64,000 nucleotides of DNA, taken from assembly GCA_964620355.1 (NCBI GenBank), contig CAZUIT010000001.1:57563-121562 (forward strand). The letters run 5' to 3'. This document shows, one piece after another, positions 16,269-63,074 of the stretch; positions within the stretch are counted from its first letter, which is position 1; each line of letters opens with the position of its first letter. Made by a program: the position numbers and the translations under genes. Under the pieces are notes generated by a model that saw only the letters and a program-made list of their open reading frames with translations, did not search any database and was not told the DNA's origin. This DNA comes from an uncultured Burkholderiales bacterium. GTDB taxonomy: Bacteria > Bacteroidota > Bacteroidia > UBA8524.

Positions 16269-16273
16269 AAACT

Positions 16274-17023: not shown

Positions 17024-19501
17024 CTAGTGCTTGATCAATAACTTCGTGGCTTTAAATCCATTTCCTTGAACATAGTAAATGCCTGTTTTCAAGGAAACCG
17101 TTGATAGATGAGCACCATTCACAAGCATTTGTTTGATGACAAGCTTTCCTTGCCCATCATATATGCGAATTTCTTGTTGTGCCCCAATACGCTGATCCCA
17201 CCGAATACTCACTCTGCCATCAGCAGGGTTCGGATAAACCAAGGCGCTCAAGTTTTCGTTTTCCTTCAAACCTACCGCATTATAGCTTGGAATCTGCTTG
17301 CCGTATGGCGTAATTCGAGCGGTAAAAGCCCCTCTGCCATGGGTATAGATGAACAAACGCCGATCCGAGGCACGTACACGAACCATATCGACAACTACAT
17401 TTGGAATTCCTTCTTCCTGGAACCAGGTCTGACCTCCATCCGTGGTATAAAATAGGCCTCTATCCGTTCCAGCAAAAAATACAGAATCGGCTGCCGCAGG
17501 ATCAACATCAATCCAATTTACTGGCATACCAAGGGGTAGATTTCCACTAATATCAACGAATTCTGGGGTGTCTGAATCTGCCTTGATGACTTTCCAAACT
17601 CTCGGGTCATTAGAATAATCAGTGAAGCTTAAAAATAACTCGGTATGGTTCACCGGATTTGGAGTGATGCAGCCTATAAAACTGCTATATAAACTTGATG
17701 GAACAAATTGCCTCAAGTTTTCCTCCCCGCCCACCTTCGCATTTCGGGCATTTTTTATGCGATAGAATAAGGCTTGTCTTCCGCCAATATAAACTGCGGG
17801 GTTCAACTGGTTGGTAATCCCCACTGCAAAAGGCTGAATATTGGTTCCAATATTAATTTCATCGGTAATTGGGTCAAATAAAATTCCTCCATTGACCGAC
17901 AAGTAAACCCGTTTTTTGGTAGGGTAAACTAACATTTCGCCATCCTGGGGGTTCATGGCATAGGGATGGATGAACCAGGCCCCATCGTCCACTACTTTAT
18001 TGCCATCAGAATCCATATCTGCGAGGATATCCGTGGTAGTGAGCTTATTGCTTCCAAATCCATCCACACGGAAAATGCGTCCGTTTTGAAAGGAAAGAAA
18101 TGCCAAAGCAGGATTTTGTTGACTAATCTCGGTATACGAACCATCAGCACCATAAAGCTTGCTGAAGGTATCATTTCCGTTGAGGGTAAAATGAGTCCCG
18201 TTGTCTTGGTAGCCCCCCATTATGCTGATATTCTCAGGGGCAAAAGCCCCAGCATAATATTGCGTGATATTTAATCCCCAATTCAGGTCTTCATATTTGC
18301 TTAGGTCACTCCATTGGTAGGCGTGTACCCCACCGTCATTACCAATTATCAATAAATCTTTATTCGAAGGATGTTGTGCCATGGTATGATAATCCGCATG
18401 AGAATTCTTGGCAAAATTCCATGTATCTCCTCCGTTTGTTGAATGAACTAAGTTCACTGAACCGACAATGATAGAATTCGGGTCATCTTGTTTGACCTCG
18501 ACAGCTAAAGTATACCAGGTAAAAGGGTAGCTCCCTCCCTGATCATCCGGGTTTCCTTTTTCTACCCAAGTCTTTCCCTGATCCTCACTCTTATAAAATC
18601 CGGTTAAGGCTGTGTTATTGCTATTCGAAACGGCGGCATAAACGATATTTGCTTGCTCCTGACAATATGCCATTTCAATTCTTCCGACTCCTGATCCACT
18701 GGGTAATCCATTATTCCTAAGAACCCAAGAGCCATCATCTCCTGTGGTACTCGTATATATCCCCTGACCGCGAATGGAAATCATAATGGATCCATCAGGA
18801 AAAATTTCCATATCATATACCTCACGTGAAGTGATTACCACACGTTCAAAGGACTGTCCTGCATCTTTCGAACGGTAGACGCCACCAGAGTTAAGCGAGA
18901 CATAAAGCGTATTGGTATCGACCGTACTGCATGCAATGCGCCAAGTGGAATTGAAGTTTCCGTTTGTCGTTGCGCTCAATTGCGAAAAGGTCTTGCCGTG
19001 GTCTGTCGATTTGAAAATGCCGGCACCTGGTGCCCCACCTGAGTTTCCAGCCCCTTCGCCAGTGCAGTAGTAGAGAATATCCGGATTCAGCGGGTTTTGT
19101 GTAAGATGAGAAATATTCAACGTAACTTCCCTCTCATTAATGGCCTTCCAATTTTTACCTGATTCCTCAGAAACCCACATTCCACCTGTAATGGCCGCAA
19201 CAAAATACCGGTTGATATTGGTCTGATCTATCACGATACCGCGGGTTCTTCCTCCTACGTTAAAGGGACCAATTTCTTCGATACTATCTAGTACTTCACC
19301 ACTCCTTTTTGAATAGCGGGTTTGTTTTTCCCAGTTATTCACGGCATTAAAAGGAATATCTCCTTTGATATCATGAATAAATTCAAAATGGCCTGGCCCA
19401 CTGCTCAACTTTTCTTCTTTACCTGTTGGCGTATGATTAAAAAAGTATACGGCACATGTAATTCCTCCCAAAGCGATTAGGGATAATAAAATTTTCTTCA
19501 T
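17024..19501 (-). CDS. secreted BNR/sortilin-like repeat protein with T9SS C-terminal sorting domain
   Basis: The signal peptide starts at ATG 19501 (MKKILLSLIALGG). It has repeated S-x-D-x-G-x-T-W (BNR/Asp-box-like) motifs and a C-terminal T9SS CTD (YPNPADGRVSIRWD...GIYYVQGNGFKATKLLIKH). Confidence 0.7.
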   Translation of the reverse strand: MKKILLSLIALGGITCAVYFFNHTPTGKEEKLSSGPGHFEFIHDIKGDIPFNAVNNWEKQTRYSKRSGEVLDSIEEIGPFNVGGRTRGIVIDQTNINRYFVAAITGGMWVSEESGKNWKAINEREVTLNISHLTQNPLNPDILYYCTGEGAGNSGGAPGAGIFKSTDHGKTFSQLSATTNGNFNSTWRIACSTVDTNTLYVSLNSGGVYRSKDAGQSFERVVITSREVYDMEIFPDGSIMISIRGQGIYTSTTGDDGSWVLRNNGLPSGSGVGRIEMAYCQEQANIVYAAVSNSNNTALTGFYKSEDQGKTWVEKGNPDDQGGSYPFTWYTLAVEVKQDDPNSIIVGSVNLVHSTNGGDTWNFAKNSHADYHTMAQHPSNKDLLIIGNDGGVHAYQWSDLSKYEDLNWGLNITQYYAGAFAPENISIMGGYQDNGTHFTLNGNDTFSKLYGADGSYTEISQQNPALAFLSFQNGRIFRVDGFGSNKLTTTDILADMDSDGNKVVDDGAWFIHPYAMNPQDGEMLVYPTKKRVYLSVNGGILFDPITDEINIGTNIQPFAVGITNQLNPAVYIGGRQALFYRIKNARNAKVGGEENLRQFVPSSLYSSFIGCITPNPVNHTELFLSFTDYSNDPRVWKVIKADSDTPEFVDISGNLPLGMPVNWIDVDPAAADSVFFAGTDRGLFYTTDGGQTWFQEEGIPNVVVDMVRVRASDRRLFIYTHGRGAFTARITPYGKQIPSYNAVGLKENENLSALVYPNPADGRVSIRWDQRIGAQQEIRIYDGQGKLVIKQMLVNGAHLSTVSLKTGIYYVQGNGFKATKLLIKH

Positions 19502-19554
19502 CCTGATTGCGAAAATGCTTCTTTTCTCGATTGATTCAAAAGACATTAAATGAC

Positions 19555-23914: not shown

Positions 23915-24922
23915 ATGAAAGCACGTATACTATTCAAAAAGGAGCTTTTTATGGGCTCCTTTTTACTTTTATCCTTAGTTGGTAACAGTCAGCACCAATG
24001 CCTGACGGCCCATTTTCCATTCAACGGAAACGCTTCTGATTCTACCTCTTCTGGAGTGCAGACCAGCATGCAAGGAACATTTTCGTATGTTGCCAATTCT
24101 AATGGAGCACCAAACAGTGCCCTTCATTTTAATGCCACAGATAGTTATATCGACCTGAATGGTAGCCAGCCCGTAATTACGACCACAGAATTTTCAATTT
24201 CTATTTGGGCCAAAATGGATGGAGCGCCAGGAGGAAAGGATTTCAATGGGACACTTTTTGAACAACGAGATGACAATGCCACGAGTGCATCGAAATCAAT
24301 GATTGTATTGATGCCTGACGATAATAATGGAAATTGCATCTTCACCATGCGATCAAGCATTAGCGTAAACGCTGGTACCGACTTCATTTCAATTCCTCGC
24401 CAAGATTATAACGAATGGCACCATTATTTGGCAACAAAAGACGCGGATAGCCTCTATCTCTACATTGATGGTGTAAAAGCGGGGTCCGCCCCATATACCC
24501 AAACTGGAGATTTCAAGACAAGCATCGATAATGTTGGCATTGGCGTGCATCGCAACTTTGGTCAGATTAAAGGACTATTTAATGGCGATATTGACCAAGT
24601 AAAACTCTACGATTGTGCTGTAAAACCAGCTGATATTGACGACCACGATATTACGAGCTTTCGTCATATAGCATCAGCAATGAATTTTGAAGTTTTTCCA
24701 AACCCAGCTAAATCAAGCTGCCAAATTCAGTTTCCTAATCCAAATGATGAATCATTAACCCTCCGTGTTTTTGATGCTCAAGGCAAATTAATCAAAGAAG
24801 TTCCGCAGATTAAAGGCGAATCTTACGAATTTATGCGAGATGGCCTAACCAGCGGTGTATACTTTTTTAAACTAAGCTCTTTTGAGAATTCAGGCAGCTA
24901 TCAGCGCGTGGTATTCGATTAA
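23915..24922 (+). CDS. secreted LamG/concanavalin-like domain protein with T9SS C-terminal sorting domain
   Basis: It has a signal peptide and a LamG-like core (DSLYLYIDGV..). The C-terminus FEVFPNPAKSS...GVYFFKL is a T9SS CTD. Confidence 0.65.
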   Translation: MKARILFKKELFMGSFLLLSLVGNSQHQCLTAHFPFNGNASDSTSSGVQTSMQGTFSYVANSNGAPNSALHFNATDSYIDLNGSQPVITTTEFSISIWAKMDGAPGGKDFNGTLFEQRDDNATSASKSMIVLMPDDNNGNCIFTMRSSISVNAGTDFISIPRQDYNEWHHYLATKDADSLYLYIDGVKAGSAPYTQTGDFKTSIDNVGIGVHRNFGQIKGLFNGDIDQVKLYDCAVKPADIDDHDITSFRHIASAMNFEVFPNPAKSSCQIQFPNPNDESLTLRVFDAQGKLIKEVPQIKGESYEFMRDGLTSGVYFFKLSSFENSGSYQRVVFD

Positions 24923-25715: not shown

Positions 25716-26051
25716 ATGAAAAAGTATTTACTTACCCTTGCCTTAATCGTTGCGGGCCTCAGCATCGCTAGCGCTCAAGCAACCCCTGAAAAAAAGAAGG
25801 AAGAAAAACCAGTGGTAACTGCCCCTGCTCCTGAAGTAAAAAAAGAGGAAACAAAAAAGGAAGAACCGAAAAAAGAGGAAGCCAAAAAGGAGAAAGAAGA
25901 GAAAAAAGAATGCTGTAAAAAGGCAGGAGAAGAAGTAAAAAGCTGCTGTAAAAAAGAAGAAGGAAAAAAAACCGAATGCAAAACCTGCAGCAAAGAAAAT
26001 AAAAAGGGGTGTGGTGCTGAGCCAGCCAAGGAAGAAAAACCCAAACCCTAG
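25716..26051 (+). CDS. small lipoprotein with KE-rich repeat region and C-terminal Cys cluster
   Basis: It has a lipoprotein-type signal peptide (LSIASAQ) followed by (K/E)-rich repeats. Eight Cys lie in the last 50 aa, arranged as CC..x9..CC..x11..C..C..x9..C. A clean terminator follows it. Confidence 0.6.
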   Translation: MKKYLLTLALIVAGLSIASAQATPEKKKEEKPVVTAPAPEVKKEETKKEEPKKEEAKKEKEEKKECCKKAGEEVKSCCKKEEGKKTECKTCSKENKKGCGAEPAKEEKPKP

Positions 26052-26800: not shown

Positions 26801-28522
26801 ATGGTAGACGCTACTCTTATTTCTCGCGCGAAAGCATGGCTTAGCGAAAGCTTTGATGAAAACACACGCAAAGAAGTTCAGCACCTCATTGATGAGAACG
26901 GAACTGAGTTGGTAGATGCATTTTATAAAGACCTTGAATTTGGTACGGGTGGTCTCCGCGGAATCATGGGCGCCGGCACCAATAAAATGAACATCTATAC
27001 CCTAGGAATGACTACCCAAGGCCTAGCAAACTATTTAAACCAAGTTTATTCTGGTGCGAAAAGCAAGGTTGTAATTGCCCACGATTCACGAAATAATAGC
27101 CGGTTATTCGCTGAAACAACAGCAAATGTCTTTTCAGCGAATGGCATTCATGTTTTCCTCTTTGAAAGCCTTCGCCCCACTCCAGAATTGTCTTTTGCTG
27201 TACGTGAGTTGAATGCCCAAGCAGGAATCGTGATTACCGCTTCACATAATCCCAAGGAATACAATGGATACAAAGTCTATTGGAACGATGGCGGCCAACT
27301 CGTACCGCCACACGATAAAAACACCATTGAAGAAGTGCGCAAAATCGCAGGGCCTGATCAGGTAAAATTTACTCCTGATACAAGCATCATCTATAGCCTA
27401 GGTGCGGAGATGGACGAAAAATACTGGAACCGAATTGCCCAATTGAGCCTCAACCAAGCAGGGAAAGATTCCTTGAAGATTGTTTATACTCCAATTCATG
27501 GCACCGGTATCCAAGGCGTTCCTCAGGTATTGGCAAAAATGGGATTCGCCCATGTTGATGTATTGGAGAGCCAGAAGATGCCCGATGGAAACTTTCCTAC
27601 CGTCCACTCACCTAACCCTGAAGAGGCGGCGGCATTGAACCTTGCCCTAGAACGAGCAAATGAAACCGGTGCCGACCTTGTTCTTGGAACGGACCCAGAT
27701 GCAGACCGTGTAGGAATTGCGGTACGCGGACCAAAAGGAAAACTGCACTTGATGAATGGCAATGAAACTGCCGCAATCCTCGTCCATTATATCTTATCAC
27801 AAAAGAAACATCGCCGCGAATTACATGGGAATGAATTCGTTGCTAAGACCATCGTTACCTCGGATATCATTGCAGATATTGCTAAGAACTTTGGCGTGCG
27901 TCTTTATGAATGCCTCACGGGCTTCAAATATATTGCTGAGCTAATTCGCGAAAAAGAAGGGCGTGAGAAGTATTTGGTAGGCGGTGAGGAGAGTTATGGC
28001 TACCTTATTGGCGACTTTGTTCGCGACAAAGATGCAGTGAGCTCCGCAGCCATGATTGCAGAAGCTGCAGCCTGGGCGCATAGCCAAGGAATGACACTTC
28101 TTGACTACCTCGAACAAATCCATCGCGAAACCTATGCTTACCAAGAAGCCTTGGTATCCATCACTAAAAAAGGGAAAGCAGGCGCAGAAGAAATTCAACA
28201 AATGATGGCCGATTTTCGCAGCAAACCGATACAAAGTATCAATAGCCACCCGGTAATTATTACCCGAGATTATGCAACAGGAATCGAGCATGACATGAGA
28301 AATGGCGATAAACGTCCTTTGGGCTTGCCCTCTTCAAATGTATTTCAGTTTGTATTGCACGACCAAAGCATTATCACAGCGCGGCCATCAGGCACGGAGC
28401 CGAAAATAAAGTTCTATATCAGCGTGAGGGATAAAATTATGCGAGACGATACCTACGAGGTTGACCGCGTTAAACTCATCCATAAGATTGCTGGAATAAA
28501 AAATGCACTCGGACTGAACTAA
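26801..28522 (+). CDS. phosphoglucomutase/phosphomannomutase (alpha-D-phosphohexomutase family)
   Basis: It has the active-site motif TASHNPKEYNGYK. The 573-aa length is PgcA-like. Confidence 0.85.
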   Translation: MVDATLISRAKAWLSESFDENTRKEVQHLIDENGTELVDAFYKDLEFGTGGLRGIMGAGTNKMNIYTLGMTTQGLANYLNQVYSGAKSKVVIAHDSRNNSRLFAETTANVFSANGIHVFLFESLRPTPELSFAVRELNAQAGIVITASHNPKEYNGYKVYWNDGGQLVPPHDKNTIEEVRKIAGPDQVKFTPDTSIIYSLGAEMDEKYWNRIAQLSLNQAGKDSLKIVYTPIHGTGIQGVPQVLAKMGFAHVDVLESQKMPDGNFPTVHSPNPEEAAALNLALERANETGADLVLGTDPDADRVGIAVRGPKGKLHLMNGNETAAILVHYILSQKKHRRELHGNEFVAKTIVTSDIIADIAKNFGVRLYECLTGFKYIAELIREKEGREKYLVGGEESYGYLIGDFVRDKDAVSSAAMIAEAAAWAHSQGMTLLDYLEQIHRETYAYQEALVSITKKGKAGAEEIQQMMADFRSKPIQSINSHPVIITRDYATGIEHDMRNGDKRPLGLPSSNVFQFVLHDQSIITARPSGTEPKIKFYISVRDKIMRDDTYEVDRVKLIHKIAGIKNALGLN

Positions 28523-28539
28523 GAAGCAATTATTGAATT

Positions 28540-29001
28540 TTAAGATAGAAGTTTCTGGCGCAGGTAAAATTCCAACTGCTCATTTGCTCGTTTCAACTCG
28601 TCGATAAGTCGCTCATTTTCTTTTCGAAGCATAAATACCTCATGTGCCTGGCGAATGGTCGTTTTCAAAAACTCGTTGTCCCAAGGTTTCGTTAGGTAAC
28701 GGTAAACCTCCCCTTTATTAATCGCATCCACCACCGCATTAATATCACTATAACCAGTGAGCAAAATTCGAATTGGATTTGGAGCGATTGGAATGACATT
28801 TTGTAGAAACTCAACCCCAGTCATATTCGGCATGCGCTGATCGGTTATGATAATATCAATATCTTCGTTCTTAACAATCTCTAAAGCCTCATGGCCAGAA
28901 ATTGCGGTGTGAACATTAAATTCACGTCTGAAGGCCGCTTTAAATGACAACAAATTATTTTGCTCGTCATCTACATAAAGTACATTTATTAATTGTGTCA
29001 T
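28540..29001 (-). CDS. stand-alone response regulator receiver (REC) protein
   Basis: It has LYVDDE..DIIITDQRMP..GVEF and the K of the KPW motif. It is divergent from the 29132 operon, with a 130-bp intergenic region. Confidence 0.8.
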   Translation of the reverse strand: MTQLINVLYVDDEQNNLLSFKAAFRREFNVHTAISGHEALEIVKNEDIDIIITDQRMPNMTGVEFLQNVIPIAPNPIRILLTGYSDINAVVDAINKGEVYRYLTKPWDNEFLKTTIRQAHEVFMLRKENERLIDELKRANEQLEFYLRQKLLS

Positions 29002-29131
29002 AACTTTCTCCCCTTACAAATTTAAAAATTCCTGCCTCCCAAACAATCACACTTATTCATTGAATTATTCAGCATAAGTGCATTATTTGCGGAATGTTAA
29101 TCGAATAATCACGTAAATACAAGGATTATCC

Positions 29132-31396
29132 ATGAATTACAATCTCCAAAACTGCAGTGAAAATGACTGGAAACCAGTGTTTATCGACCCTCGGAGCGAG
29201 GATGGAAAAAATACCATAGCGAAAATAAAAAATACGCCCGGAGTACAAATCCACGACCAAATAAAATCTCAGGTGAGTGAAATGCTTCGTGCTCGCTACC
29301 CGAAGAAAAAATTAAAAGGTGCGGCGCTGAGGGAAGCAGTAGATCAATTTTTTATAGAAAATGAAGCCTCAAGCTTTGGAGAATGGGTATTTTACCCTTG
29401 GAGCAAGCGGCTCATCCATATTCTTTCAAAAGAAGATTTTATTTTCACACGCCTTAGTCCAAACAACCCCAAAATCACCCGTGAGGAGCAATCCCGATTG
29501 ATGGATAAAAAAGTGGGTGTGGTAGGGCTTTCTGTGGGCCAATCTATTTCCCTGGTTCTGGCAATGGAAAGAATTTGTGGGGAACTTCGCATTGCCGATT
29601 TTGATATCCTTGAATTGGCTAATTTAAACCGTATTCGTGCTGGCTTGCACAATATGGGGCTTAATAAATCGGTTATGGTAGCGCGTGAGATAATGGAAAT
29701 CGACCCCTATTTTACCATTCGCATTTTCACAGATGGCATGACCCATGAAAATATGGATGCCTTTTTCCACGATGGAGGCGACCTCGATCTGATCGTTGAT
29801 GAATGCGACAGTATCGACATAAAAATTCTTTTGCGTGAAAAAGCAAAGTCAATGAAGATGCCTGTTGTTATGGATATGAGCGACCGAGGCACCATTGATA
29901 TTGAACGCTTTGATTTAGAACCCAACAGACCTTTATTACACGGATGGATTGATCACCTCGACATCAGTAAGCTGGGAGACATGACCAATGAACAAAAAGT
30001 TCCTTATATGCTTCCAATATTTGGTATGGACACCATCAGTAAAAGACTAAAGGCATCGATGGTGGAGATTGGAGAAAGCATCCACACTTGGCCTCAACTT
30101 GCAACATCAGTAGCCATGGGAGGAGCACTTGCGGCCGATACAGTTCGGCGTATTTTCTTGGACCAATTCCATGATTCTGGGAGATATTTTATCGATCTAG
30201 ACGAATTAATTCGCGATAAATCATACACTCCTAAACCCTTCATTCCTCAAGAATATTCATGGCCAATGCTTGAAGAAGATACCATGCGGCAATTGGCCAC
30301 AGACTTTGTTCAAAAAGCGCAATGGGGACTAGGAAACTTAAAGGCCACAGATGTCGATCCATTGATTGGTCTTGCGGCTATGGCGCCATCGGCTGGGAAC
30401 AATCAGCCTTGGAAATGGTTGTATCAAGACGGACACCTCTTTCTATTCCATGAAAAATCAAAGAGTTATTCTTGGACAGATTACGACGATTCACTCGCTC
30501 TTCTTGGATTAGGTGCTGCCGCAGAAAGCCTAAGGTTGGCAGCCTCTCGTTATGGGTATTCTTGTGAAGTAGTGAAAGTTTTAAATGCTCAGTTTATCGC
30601 TGCATTTCGATTTGAACCGAATTCCCTTGAGACGGCGCTTCCATTAGCACAGGGGATAGAAGTGCGTTGTTCGAATCGCAAAAAAGCAGAATTTAAAGAA
30701 ATACCCAGCACCTTGGAATTGGCCTTAAATGCATCATTAGAAGGCTTGACAGGCTTACGAATTGACCTCTTTAAAAAACCTGAAGAACTGGAAGCCTGGT
30801 CAAAAATTGTAGGAAAAGCAGAAAAACTACGCCTTTTAGATCCACAAGGCCACTACGAATTCTTTAAACATGAAATTCGGTGGACCGAGGAAGAAGCACT
30901 CCAAACAAGGAACGGCTTAGATATCGAAACATTAGAGCTAACTCCTTCTCAACTAGCTGGCTTGCAGGTAGGAAGTGATGCAGAGGTGATGCAAATTATC
31001 CGTAGTTGGAATCTCGGTGATGGACTCGAAAAGATGAGCAAGGAAGCGGTTCTTGCGTCATCTGCCATCTGCCTAATCAGCGCAGATGAGAGTCTTCTAA
31101 CAGATTCTTTGGCTCCTGGTGCAGCCCTGGAAAGAACATGGATTGCAGCAAATATGGAAGGCTGGTCGGTTCACCCCGTATCTGCCCCATTATTCTTCAT
31201 CCATCGAAATAAGCAGAAAAACAACCGCTTAGATGCTCAAATAAGCAAAGAAATTGTTCAATTAAGCCATGAAATCAACAAAATTACACCAATTTTGCAA
31301 GCAAGAAGAGGTGTGTTTCTTTTTCGCCTGAGTCATGCAGGATTGCCTAGCAAAAGAGCGATCAGGTTCCAAAACAATGAAATTTTAGTAAAATAA
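29132..31396 (+). CDS. E1-like (ThiF/MoeB) adenylyltransferase domain fused to FMN nitroreductase-like (SagB/ThcOx-type dehydrogenase) domain
   Basis: At residues 125-160 a GxxGxxxG loop is followed by DFDILELANLNR, which matches the ThiF motif. PSAGNNQPWKW around 30385-30417 is the classic nitroreductase FMN motif. The protein is 754 aa with a long linker. Confidence 0.6.
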   Translation: MNYNLQNCSENDWKPVFIDPRSEDGKNTIAKIKNTPGVQIHDQIKSQVSEMLRARYPKKKLKGAALREAVDQFFIENEASSFGEWVFYPWSKRLIHILSKEDFIFTRLSPNNPKITREEQSRLMDKKVGVVGLSVGQSISLVLAMERICGELRIADFDILELANLNRIRAGLHNMGLNKSVMVAREIMEIDPYFTIRIFTDGMTHENMDAFFHDGGDLDLIVDECDSIDIKILLREKAKSMKMPVVMDMSDRGTIDIERFDLEPNRPLLHGWIDHLDISKLGDMTNEQKVPYMLPIFGMDTISKRLKASMVEIGESIHTWPQLATSVAMGGALAADTVRRIFLDQFHDSGRYFIDLDELIRDKSYTPKPFIPQEYSWPMLEEDTMRQLATDFVQKAQWGLGNLKATDVDPLIGLAAMAPSAGNNQPWKWLYQDGHLFLFHEKSKSYSWTDYDDSLALLGLGAAAESLRLAASRYGYSCEVVKVLNAQFIAAFRFEPNSLETALPLAQGIEVRCSNRKKAEFKEIPSTLELALNASLEGLTGLRIDLFKKPEELEAWSKIVGKAEKLRLLDPQGHYEFFKHEIRWTEEEALQTRNGLDIETLELTPSQLAGLQVGSDAEVMQIIRSWNLGDGLEKMSKEAVLASSAICLISADESLLTDSLAPGAALERTWIAANMEGWSVHPVSAPLFFIHRNKQKNNRLDAQISKEIVQLSHEINKITPILQARRGVFLFRLSHAGLPSKRAIRFQNNEILVK

Positions 31397-31397
31397 A

Positions 31398-32084
31398 ATG
31401 TTTACGTTTAAGGCTTTTCGTGCTATTGACGAACCTGAACTTTGCGAACAATACACCGCAGGACATGTAAAGGTGTTAGAGGATTATGGAATTACCAATA
31501 TCACATCTAACAACAATGAATGGTCTAAGGTAGATTGTGTGTACTGTGTCGTCGTTTATGATGATTCCGGTGAAATGGTTGGGGGAATTCGTATGCAAAA
31601 GGCTGACGGCATTCATCAATTGCCTGTGGAAAAAGCCATTGGTTACCGTGATCCCCAGATTCACACCATAGTTAAATCCTATATCCCAGAAGGGGTTGGT
31701 GAATTATGTGCCTTATGGAACGCAAAAAGGGTGGCTGGAATAGGCTTAAGCTTGTTGTTGTCTAGGTCTGGAATTTCCATTTGCTCACAAGTAGGAATCT
31801 CTACGATGGTGGGCATTTGCGCTGATTATACACTCAATATGTTTCGAAGAGTTGGCTTCGTAGTCGACGAAAATTTGGGCAATTCTGGTGAATTTGTCTA
31901 CCCTAACGAAAATTATATAGCTAGAGTCTTAGGTATCTTGAACGCCAGAAATTTGGCCACTGCCGACGACGAAGATAGAATTAGAATGCTCTCATTACGT
32001 GAGAGCCCAGAGCAAGTATTCACAGAAAACTCGTCCAAGACCCCTCTTGAAATTTCGTACCAATTAAAAATGAACATCAAATGA
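31398..32084 (+). CDS. hypothetical protein, GNAT-like fold suspected (acyltransferase / N-acyl amino acid- or autoinducer-synthase-like)
   Basis: The 228-aa product starts 2 nt after the stop of the E1-NTR gene. ELCALWNAKRVAGIGLSLLL resembles the GNAT acyl-CoA binding motif (R/Q-x-x-G-x-G/A). I do not have a secure family assignment. Confidence 0.3.
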   Translation: MFTFKAFRAIDEPELCEQYTAGHVKVLEDYGITNITSNNNEWSKVDCVYCVVVYDDSGEMVGGIRMQKADGIHQLPVEKAIGYRDPQIHTIVKSYIPEGVGELCALWNAKRVAGIGLSLLLSRSGISICSQVGISTMVGICADYTLNMFRRVGFVVDENLGNSGEFVYPNENYIARVLGILNARNLATADDEDRIRMLSLRESPEQVFTENSSKTPLEISYQLKMNIK

Positions 32085-34231
32085 TGCGCAGAGCGATTGC
32101 AATTCTGTCATGGATTCTTCTAAGCACCAACCTACTTTGGGGACAGGAAAACTTTGTTCGCCTGGTGAACGAGAATGAAGTCATTCAGGTTAAAAACCAA
32201 TGTTCCTATTTTGAAACGTCCATCGATACCGCTCAAATTGAAAACATAGTCAATTATGAATTCACCCCGGTAGACCAAGACGTTCCAAATTTTGGGATAA
32301 GCTCCTCCACCTACTGGTTAAAAATTGAAGTTAAGAATGAAACAGATATAGAAGACTATGTGCTTCAAGTAGCTCAGCCCATTCTCGACCTCGTTCAATT
32401 CTTCGACCTGAGCGACTCTGGCTTTAGAACCGTAACCTTAGGTGAGCACCTTAACTTCGAAGAACGTCTCTATTATGACCCGAACTATTTATTCGCATTT
32501 AAAATAAAGCCTGGCGAATCCAAAACCCTGTATGTCAAAGTTCAGGCTAAAGAAAACGTGCAGGTTCCGATGAGTCTTGGTTCTCGGCAAAGTATGTTGG
32601 CCTTGACCAAGAAAAAGGATGTTTTCTCTGGCATATACCTGGGAATCATGCTTGTAATGCTATTGTACAACGCATTCATTTACATCAGCACAAAGGATAA
32701 ATCGTACATGTACTATGTGCTGTATTTGCTCTTTGTTATTTTGACCCAAAGCAGTATTCATGGTTATAGTTTCCAATACCTGTGGCCAAATTTACCTTGG
32801 CTTGCCCGCTTTAATAGCTTCCTTTTCCCTTCTCTCGTAGGAATTACTGGCATGCAATTTATGCGTGTATTCCTTCATACGAGTAGGCATTCCAAAAATT
32901 TCGATCGAATCTTTTATATCGTCGTTGCAGGATATGCCATTGGAACGAGTCTTTCATTTCTTGAATTTTTCAAAAGTAGCTTCTATCTAATTGAAGTGTG
33001 TGCGGTAATCGCTTCCGCTTCTATGATGTATATGGCGGTACGTATCGCCAGAACTGGTGATCGACCAGCATTCTTCTTCTCCATTGCTTGGGCAGTATTC
33101 CTCTTTGGAATAGCCCTATACGTTATGAAGGATTTTGGCATACTTCCATACAATAACTTCACCTATTATATGATGCCTGTTGGCTCTGCAATTGAAGTAA
33201 TGCTGCTCTCCTTTGCCTTGGCCGATCGTATCAATATCTTAAAAAAGGAAAAAGAAGCTTCGCAGGAAGAGGCTTTACGTGTATCGTTAGAGAATGAACG
33301 CATCATACGCGAGCAGAATGCCTACTTGGAACAAAAAGTTCAAGAGCGCACCATTGAATTGCAGGAAACGAATGAAGAGTTAGTGGTTACCCTGAACAAC
33401 TTGAAAGAAACTCAAGCCCAACTTGTGGATGCGGAGAAAATGGCTTCCTTGGGTCAGCTAACTGCCGGAATTGCCCATGAAATCAATAACCCAATCAACT
33501 TCGTAAGCGCTAATGTGCAACCGCTCAGGCTCGATATTCAAGATATCATGTCGATTATCGATCAATACGGTGAAGCATATCAAGCAGAGGATATTGTTGA
33601 AGCAGTGAAAAGTGTAGAAGCCTTTAAAAAGGAAATCGATTTCGACTATATCCGAAATGAAATTGTGGAACTGCTAACGGGAATTGAAGACGGTGCCGTA
33701 CGTACCGCAGAAATTGTAAAAGGACTAAAAACCTTCAGTCGCCTTGATGAGTCTGATTTGAAACCTGCTGACTTGAATGAAGGCCTGCAATCAACCTTAA
33801 TTTTGCTTCGTAACTCAGTTCCTGATAATGTGGAGGTAGAAACCGAGCTTGACGACCTTCCTCCCGTTGAATGTTTCCCAGGAAAAATTAATCAAATCTT
33901 CATGAACATCATCTCAAATGCCCTCCAGGCCATGAAGGTGGTTCAAAAAGATGAGAAACACCATCTGATCATCAAATCCCATTTTGACGAGAAAAACGTT
34001 TACTTTTCCATTAAAGATAGTGGGCCAGGAATGACTGACTCTGTAAAATCAAGAATTTTCGAGCCCTTTTTCACAACAAAAGACGTGGGTGAAGGAACAG
34101 GACTTGGCCTCTCCATCGTTTTTAAAATCATTGAAACACATGGAGGTAATATTGATGTAAATACAGCACCAGGCAGCGGAACTGAATTTTTGATTTCTTT
34201 GCCAATAGTAGCCAATATCCAGACCAACTGA
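32081..34231 (+). CDS. 7TM-DISM-type sensor histidine kinase
   Basis: It has a signal peptide, an extracellular domain of about 160 aa and seven hydrophobic helices (residues 185-380). A coiled coil is followed by the H-box LTAGIAHEINNP and G-boxes. Its ATGA start overlaps the upstream stop. Confidence 0.7.
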   Translation: MMRRAIAILSWILLSTNLLWGQENFVRLVNENEVIQVKNQCSYFETSIDTAQIENIVNYEFTPVDQDVPNFGISSSTYWLKIEVKNETDIEDYVLQVAQPILDLVQFFDLSDSGFRTVTLGEHLNFEERLYYDPNYLFAFKIKPGESKTLYVKVQAKENVQVPMSLGSRQSMLALTKKKDVFSGIYLGIMLVMLLYNAFIYISTKDKSYMYYVLYLLFVILTQSSIHGYSFQYLWPNLPWLARFNSFLFPSLVGITGMQFMRVFLHTSRHSKNFDRIFYIVVAGYAIGTSLSFLEFFKSSFYLIEVCAVIASASMMYMAVRIARTGDRPAFFFSIAWAVFLFGIALYVMKDFGILPYNNFTYYMMPVGSAIEVMLLSFALADRINILKKEKEASQEEALRVSLENERIIREQNAYLEQKVQERTIELQETNEELVVTLNNLKETQAQLVDAEKMASLGQLTAGIAHEINNPINFVSANVQPLRLDIQDIMSIIDQYGEAYQAEDIVEAVKSVEAFKKEIDFDYIRNEIVELLTGIEDGAVRTAEIVKGLKTFSRLDESDLKPADLNEGLQSTLILLRNSVPDNVEVETELDDLPPVECFPGKINQIFMNIISNALQAMKVVQKDEKHHLIIKSHFDEKNVYFSIKDSGPGMTDSVKSRIFEPFFTTKDVGEGTGLGLSIVFKIIETHGGNIDVNTAPGSGTEFLISLPIVANIQTN

Positions 34232-34241
34232 TTCTATAACT

Positions 34242-35333
34242 ATGACGAAAGCCCGGGCACGTATACTTTATATTGATGATGAGGACAATAACCTCAAGGC
34301 ATTTAAGGCAAGCTTTAGAAGGGATTTCGAAATCTATACGGTTTCCGATGCCAATGAAGCGTACCGAATCCTAGATGAAATTGAAATACATGTGGCCTTG
34401 GCGGATCAACGAATGCCCAAGGTTTCTGGAGTGGAATTTTTTGAAAAGATTCAAGAGAAGCATCCTGATATTGTACGTATTTTAATTACTGCTTATACCA
34501 ACTCACAAACCATTATTGATGCAGTAAACAAAGGGAAAATTAATCAGTATGTTGTAAAACCTTGGGACCCACAAAACCTCAAGAATATCATCGATTCTTC
34601 ATTTAATGCACATCAGGTTAAAAAAGAATTGAAGATGAAAAATGCGGAACTGCTCAAAACCAATGATGAGCTCAACCGATTCGTGTACAGCGCTTCACAT
34701 GATCTTCGTGCGCCGCTTATGTCTATTCTTGGCTTGGTAGAGTTATCGCGCCTTGAAAAGGAATCAGGCGACCCATTTATTTACCTCGATATGATTGAAA
34801 AAAGCGTTCAAAAGCTGGATGTCTTTATTCAAAATATCATAGAATATTATCAAAATGCCCGCGCCGAATCAAATTACGAACAAATTGATTTCAAGGTGCT
34901 GGTAAATGATGTAGTTGATACGCTTAAGAATACCGACCCTTCTGTGAAGTTTCTCCTTGACATTGAACAAGATTGCGACTATTTTAACGATGAATTTCGC
35001 GTACATGTTATCATGAATAACCTTGTTTCAAATGCCATCAAATACCAAAAATCAGATGCAGGAAACCCGGAGGTTAGTATTCAGGTTAAAGTAGACCATC
35101 AAAAGGCCATTATACGGATTAAAGATAACGGGGTAGGTATCTTGCAGGAACACCTTGAAAATATTTTCAAAATGTTCTTCCGAACCAAAACCCTAAACCG
35201 TACCCCAGGCACAGGAATAGGATTGTATATTATCAAGGAAGCCTTGTCAAAAATTAATGGCGAAATTCAGGTGAACTCTGTATTTGGAGAAGGAACCACA
35301 TTTGAACTCGTATTGCCTAATCTAGAAGCATAA
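34242..35333 (+). CDS. hybrid response regulator-histidine kinase (REC + HisKA + HATPase)
   Basis: The N-terminal REC (ILYIDDE..ALADQRMP..KPW) is followed by the H-box SASHDLRAPL and then DNGVGI / GTGIGL G-boxes. Confidence 0.8.
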   Translation: MTKARARILYIDDEDNNLKAFKASFRRDFEIYTVSDANEAYRILDEIEIHVALADQRMPKVSGVEFFEKIQEKHPDIVRILITAYTNSQTIIDAVNKGKINQYVVKPWDPQNLKNIIDSSFNAHQVKKELKMKNAELLKTNDELNRFVYSASHDLRAPLMSILGLVELSRLEKESGDPFIYLDMIEKSVQKLDVFIQNIIEYYQNARAESNYEQIDFKVLVNDVVDTLKNTDPSVKFLLDIEQDCDYFNDEFRVHVIMNNLVSNAIKYQKSDAGNPEVSIQVKVDHQKAIIRIKDNGVGILQEHLENIFKMFFRTKTLNRTPGTGIGLYIIKEALSKINGEIQVNSVFGEGTTFELVLPNLEA

Positions 35334-35334
35334 A

Positions 35335-35727
35335 ATGAGCACAAATCCGTACATAATTCTTGTCGATGACAACGAGATTGATCTATTTCTTCACGAAAAG
35401 CTCATTCGCCTAAGTGGTATTAGTGATAATATTGATCGATTCACGACTGCCCGAGAGGCCTTGGACTTCATTCGTAAAAAAGGACCACTTCCTGATATTA
35501 TTCTGCTCGACATTCAAATGCCTGAATTGGATGGATTCGATTTCTTGCGAGAATATGAGCATATTGAGCATATTGATCGCGAAAACACCACCATATTTAT
35601 GGTGTCTTCCTCTTTAGACTTTGGCGATATCTCTAAGGCTAAAGCCAACCCCCTAGTTAAGTCATTCATTAAAAAGCCCCTTAACGTGAAGGAACTGAAA
35701 GACGAAATATCGACTTCGGCGAACTAA
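35335..35727 (+). CDS. stand-alone response regulator receiver protein
   Basis: It is REC only ([24 protein letters not shown]). It starts 1 nt after the previous stop. Confidence 0.8.
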
Positions 35728-36440
35728 CGGAACAAATTATATTTAAGTATGCACCAGATGGCACGAAAGCCATCCTTCCAACCAATTTTCTTTCCTTCCT
35801 CATAGGTTCTGCCATAATACGAGATGCCAACTTCATAAATGCGGATGTTTTCGATACGCGCCAGCTTAGCGGTTACCTCAGGCTCAAACCCAAAACGTTT
35901 CTCATTGAGCTCCAAACCTTGAATTAATTCCCGCTTGAATGCCTTATAACACGTTTCCATGTCGGTGAGGTTCAAGTTGGTAAACATATTTGAGAGTAGT
36001 GTTAAAAACTTGTTTCCTATTGTATGCCAGAAAAAGAGGATTCGATGCGGATTACCACCCATAAACCGAGAACCATAGACCACATCGGCCACCTCTTCAC
36101 GGAAAGGTTTTAACACATCATTGTATTCACGTGGATCATACTCCAAATCAGCATCCTGAATGATAACTACATCGCCAGTTGCTTTCTCAATCCCCGTATG
36201 AAGAGCTGCTCCCTTGCCTTTATTTACCTCATGAGAATAAAAGGTAATGGACAAATCAGGATTGTTCACCATGTAATTTTCTACGGCCTCAACAGTATTG
36301 TCTTTCGAGCAATCATTCACAATGATTACTTCCTTTTCAATATCGCCAATTAAGTCAACTGCCTTCACCTTATCAAGGATAAAATGAATAGTCCTTCCCT
36401 CATTATAGGCCGGAATTACGATGGATAATTTCTTGATCAA
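35724..36440 (-). CDS. family 2 glycosyltransferase, polyprenyl-phosphate mannose/glucose synthase (Dpm1-like)
   Basis: [21 protein letters not shown] and the QDADLEY DxD motif match the Dpm1-like GT2 family. Confidence 0.75.
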
Positions 36441-36505
36441 AACGTATTAATTTCTGCAAAGAAAAGGAAACTCCTTCTAACACACACTCCTAAGCATTAA
36501 AATAG

Positions 36506-36513
36506 TAAGTTTG
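36506..36513 (+). promoter_or_regulatory. candidate -7 box (TAAGTTTG) upstream of polA
   Basis: It matches TAnnTTTG 13 nt upstream of ATG 36527. Confidence 0.25.
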
Positions 36514-36526
36514 AGCTTGCAGAATT

Positions 36527-39334
36527 ATGGAGCAGAAACGTCTTTTTTTACTCGATGGCATGGCCCTAATCTATCGGGCTTTTTTCGCTTTTAGTCAGAA
36601 TCCACGCATTAGCAGCACGGGATTGAACACTTCGGCGATGTTCGGATTTGTCAATACTCTATTGGAAGTCATTCAAAAAGAAAAACCCTCACATATAGCA
36701 GTGGTTTTTGATACCTCAGCTCCTACGGAGAGGCATATCGAATATGAAGCCTATAAGGCCAACCGTGAAGCCATGCCCGAGGACTTGGTGAAGTCACTTC
36801 CCTACTTATTTCGTATCGTGGAAGCCTTTAATATTCCGCTTATTACCATGGATGGATATGAGGCGGATGACCTTATTGGCACCCTGGCCAAACAAGCCGA
36901 ACAAAAAGGATTTATGACCTTTATGATGACTCCAGACAAGGATTTCGGTCAACTTGTTTCAGAAAACATCAAAATGTACAAGCCCGCTCGAATGGGCAAT
37001 GGAGCTGAAATACTTGGTGTGGAAGAAATTCTAAATAGGTGGAGTATTAAACGCATCGATCAGGTCATTGATATTCTTGGGTTGATGGGCGATGCCGCCG
37101 ATAATATCCCTGGAATCCCCGGTGTGGGAGAAAAAACAGCCATCAAGCTACTTGCCGAATTCGACACCATAGAAAACCTTCTCGAAAATACGGATAAGCT
37201 CAAGGGCAAGCTCAAAGAAAAGGTAGAAGAGAATAAAGATAAAGCCCTTTTATCCAAACGCTTGGCTACCATAATTCTTGATGCCCCCATAACACTCGAT
37301 GAAAAAGATCTTGAGCTAGAGGAGCCAAATAAAGAAGCCATCAAAGAACTTTTTGCTGAATTGGAATTTCGCACCCTTGCTCGCCGAATTTTTCCTGATG
37401 CACCAGAAGCGCAACGTGCTCCAGCACCAAGTGCCCAAGGAGATTTATTCAGTCAGCCAACAGCGAATGCAATATCCAATTCACCCGCTGAGATGGAAGA
37501 AGAAGAAGAAATAGTTCCAATAAAAACTATCCACGACGTCGAGCATAACTATATACTCGCTGATGATGCGACAAAAATTGGACACCTCATTCTGGCACTC
37601 CAGGAATCTGATCATTTTTGCTTCGACACAGAAACCACATCCCTTGAGGCAATGGATGCCCACCTCGTAGGAATTTCATTTGCCATCAACGCCCATAAAG
37701 CTTGGTACGTTCCTATTTCTGAAAACGAAGAAGAAGCACAAAACCGCGTTGAACAATTTCGTTCAATATTGGAGGATGAAAGTAAAATCATCATCGCCCA
37801 AAATATCAAGTACGACCTCATGGTAATGCAAAACTATGGCATCGACCTAAAAGGCAAACTTTTTGATACCATGCTCGCCCATTATCTTTTAGAAGCTGAT
37901 ATGCGCCATAATATGGATGCCATGGCCGAAACCTACCTCGCCTACCGTCCAGTTTCCATTACTGAATTGATTGGCAAAAAGGGAAGTGGCCAGCTCAATA
38001 TGCGCGACGTTGAGCTTGAAAAAATTAAAGAATATGCAGCGGAAGATTCGGATATTACCCTTCAACTGTATGCTATTTTCCTCCCCAAACTAAAGGATCA
38101 AAATGCCCTTTCTGTCCTGCATGAAATAGAAATGCCGCTTGTGCCAGTTTTGGCAGCCATGGAAAGGGAAGGCGTTCGAATCGACAAAGATTTCCTCAGC
38201 GACTATTCGAAAGAACTACTCGAAGAAGCACAGAAAAGTGAGGAAAAAATTTACGAATTCGCCGGCGTGAAATTTAATATCGCCTCTCCAAAACAAATGG
38301 GTGAAGTTCTTTTCGATGTTTTAAAACTCGACCCGAAGGCAAAAAAGACAAAAACGGGTCAATATCAAACCAATGAAGAAGTATTGAGCAAGCTTGCCTT
38401 TGAACACGACATTGCAAAAGAAATCCTGCGCTACCGTCAAATTGCCAAGTTACGGTCAACTTATGTAGATGCATTACCCACCTTAATTCATCCTATAACT
38501 GGACGAGTACATACTTCTTTTAATCAAGCTGTTGCTGCAACCGGAAGATTAAGTTCTCAGAATCCTAATTTGCAAAACATCCCCATTCGCACCGACATGG
38601 GGCGTGAAGTGAGGAAAGCTTTTGTTCCTCGAAGTGAAGAATTTGAAATCATGGCGGCAGATTATTCTCAGATAGAGTTGCGCATCATCGCTGCCTTATC
38701 AAAAGATGCAGGAATGATCGACGATTTTGTTCAAGGACATGATATTCATGCTGCAACCGCTGCAAAGGTCTTTGATGTTCCATTAGCGGAAGTCGATAAA
38801 GACATGCGACGTAAAGCGAAGATGGTGAACTTCGGGATCATTTACGGGATATCAGCCTTCGGATTGGCTCAGCGTTTAGAAATACCCCGCAAGGAAGCTG
38901 CAGAAATTATTGAAGCCTATTTTGTTCAGTATCCAAACATTAAAAAATACATGAACGATACGGTGGATGGGGCTCGCGAAAAAGGCTATGTTGAAACCGT
39001 AAAAGGACGCCGGCGCTATATACGCGACATCAATTCACGGAATCAAACGGTACGTGGCTTTGCCGAGAGAAATGCCATCAATGCACCTATTCAAGGTTCT
39101 GCAGCCGACATGATTAAAATCGCTATGATTCATGTGCATGCTGCCATGCAGGAAGCTAAACTCAAAAGCAAAATGATTCTACAAGTGCATGACGAATTGC
39201 TCTTCGAGGTGCATCGTGACGAAAAGGAACAGCTGAGGGAATTAGTGATTGAAAACATGAAAAACGCTATCAACCTCGACATCCCGCTTGAAGTTGAGGT
39301 AGGTATTGGCGCGAACTGGCTCGAGGCCCATTAA
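36527..39334 (+). CDS. polA: DNA polymerase I
   Basis: The 935-aa product has a 5'-3' exonuclease N-terminus. The pol A motifs (DYSQIELR, QVHDELLFE) are present. Confidence 0.95.
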   Translation: MEQKRLFLLDGMALIYRAFFAFSQNPRISSTGLNTSAMFGFVNTLLEVIQKEKPSHIAVVFDTSAPTERHIEYEAYKANREAMPEDLVKSLPYLFRIVEAFNIPLITMDGYEADDLIGTLAKQAEQKGFMTFMMTPDKDFGQLVSENIKMYKPARMGNGAEILGVEEILNRWSIKRIDQVIDILGLMGDAADNIPGIPGVGEKTAIKLLAEFDTIENLLENTDKLKGKLKEKVEENKDKALLSKRLATIILDAPITLDEKDLELEEPNKEAIKELFAELEFRTLARRIFPDAPEAQRAPAPSAQGDLFSQPTANAISNSPAEMEEEEEIVPIKTIHDVEHNYILADDATKIGHLILALQESDHFCFDTETTSLEAMDAHLVGISFAINAHKAWYVPISENEEEAQNRVEQFRSILEDESKIIIAQNIKYDLMVMQNYGIDLKGKLFDTMLAHYLLEADMRHNMDAMAETYLAYRPVSITELIGKKGSGQLNMRDVELEKIKEYAAEDSDITLQLYAIFLPKLKDQNALSVLHEIEMPLVPVLAAMEREGVRIDKDFLSDYSKELLEEAQKSEEKIYEFAGVKFNIASPKQMGEVLFDVLKLDPKAKKTKTGQYQTNEEVLSKLAFEHDIAKEILRYRQIAKLRSTYVDALPTLIHPITGRVHTSFNQAVAATGRLSSQNPNLQNIPIRTDMGREVRKAFVPRSEEFEIMAADYSQIELRIIAALSKDAGMIDDFVQGHDIHAATAAKVFDVPLAEVDKDMRRKAKMVNFGIIYGISAFGLAQRLEIPRKEAAEIIEAYFVQYPNIKKYMNDTVDGAREKGYVETVKGRRRYIRDINSRNQTVRGFAERNAINAPIQGSAADMIKIAMIHVHAAMQEAKLKSKMILQVHDELLFEVHRDEKEQLRELVIENMKNAINLDIPLEVEVGIGANWLEAH

Positions 39335-49297: not shown

Positions 49298-49419
49298 GCT
49301 CACTAATTTGGTTCTTGAATGAATGAAGCGATGAAATGGTTGCATTTGATTGATTTCTCTTAAAAATGCCGGTTAATAAATAGGGGTTTAACATTGCGAA
49401 TACTTGAGATAAGAATAAG

Positions 49420-63072: not shown

Positions 63073-63074
63073 GG

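Follow-up and report, generated by a model that had tools for sequence, protein, structure and literature searches.

We analysed a 64,000-nucleotide stretch of DNA from an uncultured member of the Bacteroidota (contig CAZUIT010000001.1 of GenBank assembly GCA_964620355.1, positions 57,563 to 121,562 of the forward strand; hereafter the window), in which one open reading frame (ORF) encodes a 754-aa protein of the TrzS/Rv1355c family. The testable defining features of that family are present in the protein or are conservatively varied, and its homology makes it quite probably a bifunctional oxazolone synthetase of the TrzS/OxzB type. The family has already been characterised; the new point is that such a protein is encoded here together with a membrane sensor kinase and an acyltransferase that carries no annotation. 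N-acyl oxazolone synthesis is a specific and testable function, and it takes the place of the first-pass annotation of this DNA, which had thought of E1-like enzymes and of ribosomally made, post-translationally modified peptides (RiPPs), as well as of the misleading database names 'MoeY' and 'tRNA dehydratase/nitroreductase'.

Three enzyme sets with this chemistry have been described. OxzB, a ThiF-nitroreductase from Pseudoalteromonas rubra, acts with the N-acyltransferase OxzA on acyl-coenzyme A (acyl-CoA) and Tyr or Phe to form N-acyl tyrazolones and phenazolones in an ATP-dependent manner (de Rond et al. 2021, bioRxiv 10.1101/2020.06.11.147165). TyzA, TyzB and TyzC of M. tuberculosis carry out the same oxazolone chemistry (Eltis and co-workers, PMC10404671), and in December 2025 the Eltis group renamed Rv1356c/Rv1355c as TrzA/TrzS, which form an N-acyl tryptazolone pathway present in M. 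tuberculosis, M. smegmatis and R. jostii (Kleetz et al., JBC 2025, PMC12856293). TrzA N-acylates L-tryptophan from short acyl-CoAs, after which TrzS first cyclises the product using ATP and its ThiF domain and then desaturates it using O2 and its flavin mononucleotide (FMN) domain, giving N-acyl tryptazolone; a D217A substitution abolished cyclisation, while R540A and Q651A impaired flavin content and desaturation, Q651A leaving partial activity (PMC12856293). N-acyl oxazolones have been made both in vitro and in vivo with OxzAB, TyzACB and TrzAS (bioRxiv 10.1101/2020.06.11.147165, PMC10404671, PMC12856293). Descriptions of the fusion family as poorly characterised and of its substrate as unknown, as given for this protein at first, are therefore outdated: OxzB, TyzBC and TrzS convert small-molecule N-acyl amino acids, not peptides.

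The coordinates, strand and ATG start first reported for the ORF all match the DNA (Table 1). The ThiF motif, RIADFDILELANLNRIRAG, is found at aa 153-171 after the Gly-rich VGVVGLSVGQS (aa 127-138), with RIADFDILELANLNR occupying aa 153-167, and the nitroreductase FMN motif, APSAGNNQPWKW, is found at aa 418-429. Pfam, NCBIfam and Foldseek agree, at a level well past chance, with the proposed two-domain architecture of a ThiF-like N-terminus and an Acg-type FMN C-terminus; the match to Pfam Nitroreductase is weak (E=1.5e-4, under the gathering score). The strongest assignment comes from the NCBIfam equivalog NF005901, 'Rv1355c family protein', which matches aa 9-752 against profile positions 7-718 of 722 (E=2.9e-219) with a score of 730 bits against a curated cutoff of 476, and which corresponds to the MoeY/Rv1355c-type fusion that had been named in the first pass. 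The full-length fusion of ThiF and flavin-dependent oxidase (FDO) domains is kept in more than 1,500 database proteins.

An AlphaFold2 model of the 754-aa protein, built from 58 homologs (pLDDT 88.6), was compared with the PDB using Foldseek. The N-terminal extension is modelled with strands at aa 16-18, 39-42, 84-88 and 93-97 and helices at aa 23-33, 44-55, 63-76 and 100-111 (pLDDT about 90-95), and in the homolog alignment its residues W85 and W90 never vary and Y88 and P89 hardly do. The ThiF-like domain that follows matches the folds of ThiF, MoeB, MccB, PaaA, TcdA and AclA at TM-scores of 0.7-0.8, and a sequence search of the PDB with the N-domain finds TcdA as the closest entry (E=3e-6), followed by UBA5, MoeB, ThiF, PaaA and MccB. 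Residues G129, G132-Q137, D156, D158, N164, N166, R167, K179 and D226 are the same in all 58 homologs; of these, G129, G132, D156, D158, N166, R167, K179 and D226 align with the ATP-site motifs of TcdA. The only cysteines of this domain are C149 and C225, so that it has neither a zinc site nor an E1-type catalytic Cys; this Cys content agrees better with a cyclase of the TcdA kind than with an E1 that activates proteins. Conservation of a catalytic Cys, which the first-pass annotation had proposed as a check, is no suitable test for this group of cyclases.

The best fold match of the ThiF domain is AclA (PDB 9EGB/9EGC, TM-score 0.80), a ThiF-type protein from Tenacibaculum discolor that was solved 'in complex with substrate'. 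Its source is another member of the Bacteroidota, and the reaction it catalyses may be instructive; searching the literature for AclA (PDB 9EGB) turned up no paper that describes it.

The C-terminal domain is closest to M. smegmatis Acg (PDB 2YMV), both by sequence (E=6e-8 with the full-length protein, 8.7e-9 with the domain alone) and by fold (Foldseek E=1.5e-13, TM-score 0.75). Its residues P419, N423, Q425, W427, R512, R516, R567 and H574 are invariant among the 58 homologs. We placed the mutated TrzS residues on the window protein by translating the mutagenesis primers in the supplement of PMC12856293. TrzS D217, R540 and Q651 fall on D226, R567 and H681 (Table 1), with offsets (+9, +27 and +30) that are consistent with the NF005901 profile coordinates, and R567 also aligns to an Arg of Acg 2YMV. 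An alternative placement of R540 on an RCSNR motif (K518) was dropped in favour of R567, since DRI[R]YLTP fits the pattern ERx[R]FLxP and the offsets are then consistent. Loss of the nucleotide-binding or FMN-binding residues had been named as the observation that would speak against the first domain assignment; both sets are conserved, so that assignment stands on this point.

The gene that follows the TrzS-like gene encodes a 228-aa protein with a Gcn5-related N-acetyltransferase (GNAT) fold, which we predict from its modelled structure to be a functional analogue of OxzA, TrzA and TyzA, supplying the synthetase with its substrate. Its AlphaFold2 model (pLDDT 86.6) has as best PDB matches the CoA-dependent acyl-homoserine lactone (AHL) synthases BjaI, RpaI and MesI, then TofI and FeeM, all before generic acetyltransferases (E 1e-7 to 1e-6; TM-score 0.45-0.59 query-normalised for the matches at the top of the ranking, reaching about 0.7 when target-normalised). 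FeeM synthesises N-acyl amino acids. In the motif K110-R-V-A113-G114-I-G116 of the window protein A113, G114 and G116 are invariant, and the motif presumably represents the CoA-binding pattern (R/Q)xxGxG/A. FeeM and BjaI are also the structures reported as closest to TyzA (PMC10404671).

The association of this protein with the synthetase is constant. Scanning the GTDB species genomes gave 80 Bacteroidota loci with a synthetase of 39-46% identity, whose neighbours were identified by tblastn with the window proteins, and a GNAT gene adjoins the TrzS-like gene in 76/76 assessable loci (55 downstream, 21 upstream). One protein, P0372 (MBC7775362.1), carries the N-extension and ThiF-cyclase of a TrzS-like protein fused to a GNAT domain, a Rosetta-stone link between the two functions. 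The partners sought in the first annotation were YcaO and a precursor peptide; the real partner, the adjoining GNAT gene, was overlooked, as were the sensor-kinase genes. P0372 comes from a Saprospiraceae/Phycisphaerae-labelled metagenome-assembled genome (MAG) and has no FDO domain and no nearby kinase; its product would be predicted to be a saturated oxazolone. The GNAT domain was also seen fused to an N-terminal TIR domain in P0337 (570 aa) and to leucine-rich repeats in P0309 (662 aa), and tandem-duplicated in P0250 (479 aa).

The TrzS-like, GNAT, 7TMR-DISM kinase, REC-kinase hybrid and REC genes are separated by 1, -4, 10 and 1 nt, and with such gaps the five genes form one operon; a further receiver (REC) gene is divergently transcribed upstream (Table 1). 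The sensor kinase consists of an extracellular DISMED2 domain, 7 transmembrane helices, HisKA and HATPase (Pfam 7TMR-DISM_7TM E=1.5e-53, 7TMR-DISMED2 E=5.4e-28, HATPase_c E=7.5e-23). The divergent REC protein has a receiver and a short C-terminal coiled-coil-like tail but no DNA-binding domain, and its receiver domain is a paralog of the receiver in the REC-kinase hybrid. A sigma-70 promoter and terminator scan of 28400-36600 gave no excess over shuffles, the sigma-70 consensus being unsuited to Bacteroidota promoters, and neither Rfam nor tRNA scans gave a match close to the locus.

Table 1. Genes, domains and key residues of the oxazolone synthetase locus, in window coordinates.
Feature	Position	Strand	Evidence or remark
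REC-only response regulator, 153 aa, divergent	28540..29001	-	Pfam Response_reg E=2.4e-21
754-aa TrzS-like protein gene	29132..31396	+	ATG start, 754 aa + stop
N-terminal extension, small alpha/beta domain, aa 1-110	29132..29461	+	NF005901 covers from profile position 7
ThiF-like ATP-dependent cyclase (adenylation) domain, ~aa 111-360	29462..30211	+	Pfam ThiF on aa 114-247, E=8.2e-18
D226, DLIVDEC[D]SIDI	29807-29809		= M. smegmatis TrzS D217, DVVVEEC[D]SLDA; invariant 58/58
Acg-type FDO domain, ~aa 405-754 + stop	30344..31396	+	NF047509 (NCBIfam, Acg-family FMN oxidoreductase) on aa 411-697, E=8.8e-34
R567, GKAEKL[R]LLDP	30830-30832		= TrzS R540, RRTDRI[R]YLTP; invariant 58/58
H681, MEGWSV[H]PVSAP	31172-31174		= TrzS Q651, QQHGVSV[Q]PVSP; His 40, Gln 18 of 58 Bacteroidota homologs
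GNAT-fold acyltransferase, 228 aa, predicted N-acyl amino acid synthase	31398..32084	+	starts 1 nt after TrzS-like stop
7TMR-DISM sensor histidine kinase, 716 aa	32081..34231	+	4-nt overlap of start with GNAT stop
REC-HisKA-HATPase hybrid kinase, 363 aa	34242..35333	+	Response_reg E=2.3e-19, HisKA E=1.7e-8, HATPase_c E=4e-25
REC-only response regulator at operon end, 130 aa	35335..35727	+	Pfam Response_reg E=4.4e-15; 1 nt past preceding stop

The same cassette is carried by Pedobacter, Mucilaginibacter, Algoriphagus, Chitinophagaceae, Flavobacteriales, Cryomorphaceae and Cytophaga. In 64/65 assessable genome loci the enzyme pair is followed, on the same strand, by a 7TMR-DISM kinase gene, the exception being a split match, and past the kinase lies a REC-containing gene in 59/63 loci, which is a full-length REC-kinase hybrid in 49/63. 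A homolog of the divergent upstream REC gene is present in 57/75 assessable loci (L005, L009, L027, L035, L039 and L085 among those with homologs) and is tandem-duplicated in several Pedobacter loci; it is the best conserved protein of the cassette, at 50-68% identity against 39-46% for the synthetase. The terminal 130-aa REC protein is found in many, not all, related loci. The genes that flank the cassette vary between genomes, which marks the cassette as a self-contained module. Cassettes were also seen in six MAGs labelled Bifidobacterium, Janthinobacterium lividum, Limnohabitans, Akkermansia and Azovibrio (L019, L026, L033, L066, L067, L072), labels that are probably binning or labelling errors and not the true hosts.

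The linkage holds when it is approached from the kinase. We searched metagenomes with the sensor part of the kinase (aa 1-400) and obtained 80 loci with 77 distinct sequences; 56 of the loci had enough upstream DNA to be assessed. A GNAT gene was present in 56/56 and a TrzS-like gene in 54/56. In all, synthetase, GNAT and kinase are co-encoded in well over a hundred related loci. Both exceptions have the order REC, GNAT, X, kinase, the TrzS-like gene being replaced by X, which is a 503-aa FAD_binding_4 oxidase in L110 (2659-4170) and a 259-aa class-I SAM methyltransferase in L128 (4144-4923); their kinases (37% and 33% identity, respectively) are among the most divergent retrieved. These two variants indicate that the conserved core is the GNAT plus the kinase and that the tailoring enzyme is exchangeable: most cassettes have an oxazolone synthetase in this place, and a few rare ones an FAD oxidase or methyltransferase.

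From the known enzymes, a three-step pathway can be proposed. The GNAT would move an acyl group from acyl-CoA onto the amino group of a free L-amino acid, which by analogy is probably aromatic. The ThiF domain would then adenylate the N-acyl amino acid's carboxylate, and attack by the amide oxygen would close a 5(4H)-oxazolone ring with release of AMP. Finally the FMN domain would desaturate the C-alpha/C-beta bond at the expense of O2; the unsaturated N-acyl oxazolone so formed could hydrolyse to an N-acyl dehydro-amino acid. Oxazolones are open to both hydrolysis and alcoholysis (PMC12856293).

Several points weigh against this assignment of the pair. The biochemically characterised relatives are all from outside the Bacteroidota, and the comparison with Rv1355c, MSMEG TrzS and OxzB rests on a profile score and on primer-derived sequence contexts. 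The Gly-rich loop GLSVGQ, invariant in the homologs, is yet non-canonical and one residue shorter than that of TcdA, and the window protein has H681 where TrzS has Q651. For the GNAT, a profile search of PDB sequences with the family found nothing at E<=10, FeeM included, and an exhaustive profile search among 1.8 billion representatives returned 584 relatives, all unannotated or 'hypothetical'. The P0372 fusion is known from a single MAG contig (L167, 6409-8307) and may be an assembly artefact. Because the GNAT has no detectable sequence similarity to annotated families, its role rests on its fold (TM-score about 0.6), its adjacency to the synthetase gene and this one fusion. The window GNAT has no match in Pfam or NCBIfam; relaxing the Pfam search to E<=10 still gave none for it and gave only weak, generic GNAT matches for 12/24 family members. 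With more than 500 homologs, every one of them named 'hypothetical', it looks, from sequence, like a separate family.

What the product is for is a separate matter. Both groups that characterised the enzymes describe the role of oxazolones in physiology as unsettled and suspect signalling. LuxM/LuxN, CqsA/CqsS and LqsA/LqsS/LqsR are quorum-sensing pairs of a synthase and a membrane histidine kinase, and the Bacteroidota are, to our knowledge, a phylum without an established cognate autoinducer-receptor pair. We tentatively propose that the cassette of REC, TrzS-like, GNAT, 7TMR-DISM kinase, REC-kinase and REC genes may be a self-contained chemical signalling system, in which the GNAT and a swappable tailoring enzyme would make a signal with an N-acyl amino acid as its source (an N-acyl oxazolone, which is electrophilic, or the dehydro-amino acid left by its hydrolysis), the seven-transmembrane kinase would detect it, and a phosphorelay would lead to a non-transcriptional or remote output. 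That the oxazolone product or the N-acyl dehydro-amino acid is a self-made signal read by the co-encoded kinase is, by analogy with such pairs, a possibility we hold with some doubt. Speaking against it, the cassette genes encode no DNA-binding or other recognisable output domain, and DISMED2 domains are usually discussed as carbohydrate-binding. Tryptazolones are mostly cell-associated (PMC12856293). Synteny alone cannot tell a kinase that senses the product from one that controls its production. Full-text literature searches found no paper joining oxazolones to 7TMR-DISM or histidine kinases.

The explanation that competes most seriously with signalling, and that we regard as plausible though short of probable, is that the N-acyl oxazolone or dehydro-amino acid is an end product (antimicrobial, a membrane or vesicle lipid, UV-absorbing or stress-protective) and that the two-component genes do no more than turn its production on when the kinase senses an unrelated external cue, for example a DISMED2-bound carbohydrate. 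Oxazolone production is antibiotic-induced in Proteobacteria (bioRxiv 10.1101/2020.06.11.147165), related N-acyl tyrosines are antimicrobial, the tendency of tryptazolones to stay in cells suits such a product (PMC12856293), and the synteny seen in the genome and reverse searches is expected equally for a dedicated regulator. However, the cassette has no DNA-binding regulator or transcriptional output, either in the window or in two fully annotated relatives, which leaves a simple circuit, a two-component system regulating its neighbours, lacking the component that usually comes last. Enzymes and kinases are moreover translationally packed in one operon, unlike a regulator that lies beside its target, and the GNAT-kinase pairing outlasts the replacement of the tailoring enzyme in L110 and L128. 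Together these three points tip the balance slightly towards signalling.

Other readings concern the enzyme itself. The first-pass annotation had drawn an analogy to RiPP pathways, in which an E1-like protein and a nitroreductase-type enzyme install azol(in)e heterocycles in a ribosomal peptide (McbBCD, SagBCD, ThcOx). The analogy holds insofar as the same two superfamilies carry out the same overall chemistry, ATP-dependent cyclodehydration and FMN-dependent oxidation building a heterocycle, and the RiPP ThiF-like enzymes MccB and PaaA are among the fold matches of the N-domain; it fails for the substrates of the characterised enzymes, which are N-acyl amino acids and not peptides. We consider a RiPP function very improbable and rejected it as the basis of the annotation. 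PF02624 (YcaO) is absent from the 37 window ORFs that were scanned (36 of the 44 ORFs with 180 aa or more, together with two short REC genes), as the first pass had also stated, and YcaO is likewise absent among the called, Pfam-annotated neighbours of related loci. The best match of the C-domain is an Acg-type and not a SagB-type oxidase, with SagB, McbC and ThcOx absent from the top 50 fold matches, and the protein scores as an equivalog of Rv1355c/TrzS, which acts on free N-acyl tryptophan. Its universally conserved neighbour is a GNAT and not a peptide or a protease/transporter set, and operon gaps of at most 10 nt leave no room inside the operon for a precursor peptide gene. The earlier statement that this is not a canonical thiazole/oxazole-modified microcin (TOMM) cluster is thus upheld by the lack of YcaO in the scanned ORFs, the Acg-type oxidase and the conserved GNAT partner.

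The 'MoeY' annotation implies an adenylyltransferase that activates a MoaD/ThiS sulfur carrier for molybdopterin or thiamin and whose nitroreductase domain is accessory. In its favour are a resemblance in fold to ThiF and MoeB and matches to models of ThiF, MoeB and MoeZ that are significant though below threshold (E 1e-15 to 1e-6), but all of these models score far under their curated cutoffs (MoeB, for example, at 45.9 against 266 bits), the ThiF domain lacks the CxxC...CxxC zinc site and a downstream catalytic Cys, and no MoaD/ThiS, moa or thi genes occur in the conserved neighbourhood. TyzB (formerly 'MoeW') and Rv1355c have moreover been demonstrated not to be molybdenum cofactor enzymes (PMC10404671, PMC12856293), and we rejected a sulfur-carrier E1 as highly unlikely. 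Least likely of all is an incidental fusion, in which the C-domain would be an Acg-like nitroreductase or a stress/dormancy protein unrelated to the N-domain, as its best solved homolog, M. smegmatis Acg, might suggest: the full-length fusion recurs throughout the database family under a single equivalog profile, and the TrzS domains act one after the other on the same substrate (PMC12856293).

Elsewhere in the window, a second two-component pair is encoded at 13497-17017 (+), where a GAF-PAS-PAS-PAS histidine kinase (923 aa) is followed by a REC-AraC-type response regulator (247 aa). Plant GH3 proteins are acyl-acid amido synthetases; a bacterial member of the family, 512 aa long and with the N, M and C domains all present, is encoded at 9630-11168 (-), beside an M28 peptidase. 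A 111-aa protein at 25716-26051 (+) has a signal-peptide-like N-terminus, a body extremely rich in Lys and Glu, with KKEE repeats, and several Cys pairs; it is conserved in homologous loci, where it has no precomputed Pfam match. Four proteins (17024-19546, 23915-24922, 46709-49345 and 55465-56382) carry Por_Secre_tail, the C-terminal sorting domain of type IX secretion, one of them BNR/sortilin-like and one with Laminin_G_3, and this set confirms a Bacteroidota host. A resistance-nodulation-division (RND) efflux operon at 58677-63944 (-) encodes an OEP outer-membrane factor, an AcrB-type pump (1026 aa) and, upstream, a 289-aa ORF that is probably the membrane-fusion protein.

With the synthetase assigned in this way, an experimentally validated oxazolone pathway is widespread in environmental Bacteroidota. 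The text of the primary OxzAB, TyzACB and TrzAS papers does not discuss this phylum; their sequence similarity network (SSN) figures may include such sequences. The near-obligate linkage to a 7TMR-DISM kinase and REC proteins provides a concrete candidate receptor for the suspected oxazolone signalling; if this is true, oxazolones gain both a receptor and a function, and culturable carriers exist in which the receptor hypothesis can be tested, among them Pedobacter caeni DSM 16990, P. glucosidilyticus DSM 23534, Algoriphagus yeomjeoni DSM 23446 and Cryomorpha ignava.

The closest known system is TrzS/TrzA. Both are fusions of a ThiF-like cyclase with an Acg-type FDO that keep the D217 and R540 equivalents, with an acyltransferase gene adjoining in the operon, and both have signalling genes alongside, for cyclic di-GMP turnover in M. 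tuberculosis and for a phosphorelay here. The system described here differs in being from Bacteroidota, in having His at the Q651 position, and in an acyltransferase drawn from a sequence family without annotation. Its gene order also differs, being synthetase then GNAT in most of the genome loci (55/76) instead of trzA then trzS, and the pair is hard-wired to a 7TMR-DISM kinase. OxzAB shares the two-gene unit of a ThiF-nitroreductase di-domain enzyme and an N-acyltransferase, whereas OxzB falls in an SSN subcluster other than that of TrzS while the window protein scores with the Rv1355c model, and no sensor-kinase linkage has been reported for oxzAB. TyzACB has the same three activities, and TyzA, like the 228-aa GNAT, was a 'hypothetical' recognised only by its fold (FeeM, BjaI); in that system, however, the ThiF protein (TyzB) and the FDO (TyzC) are separate and the order of steps is not obligate.

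Single components can be compared more widely. The tRNA t6A dehydratase TcdA/CsdL (PDB 4D79, 4RDH) is the closest solved sequence to the N-domain, and is likewise ThiF-like without a Zn site and uses ATP to close an oxazolone-type ring on an N-carbamoyl amino acid moiety, but its substrate is a tRNA and it has no oxidase domain. Acg (MSMEG_5246, Rv2032; PDB 2YMV) shares the C-domain fold and motifs, namely APSxxNxQPW and the Arg equivalent to R567, but is a stand-alone FDO-B group protein without linkage to ThiF or an acyltransferase and is not implicated in oxazolone synthesis. As for the quorum-sensing pairs LuxM/N, CqsA/S and LqsA/S/R, the GNAT here has an AHL-synthase-like fold, whereas the sensor of the kinase has no sequence relationship to either LuxN or CqsS and the oxazolone chemistry differs from theirs.

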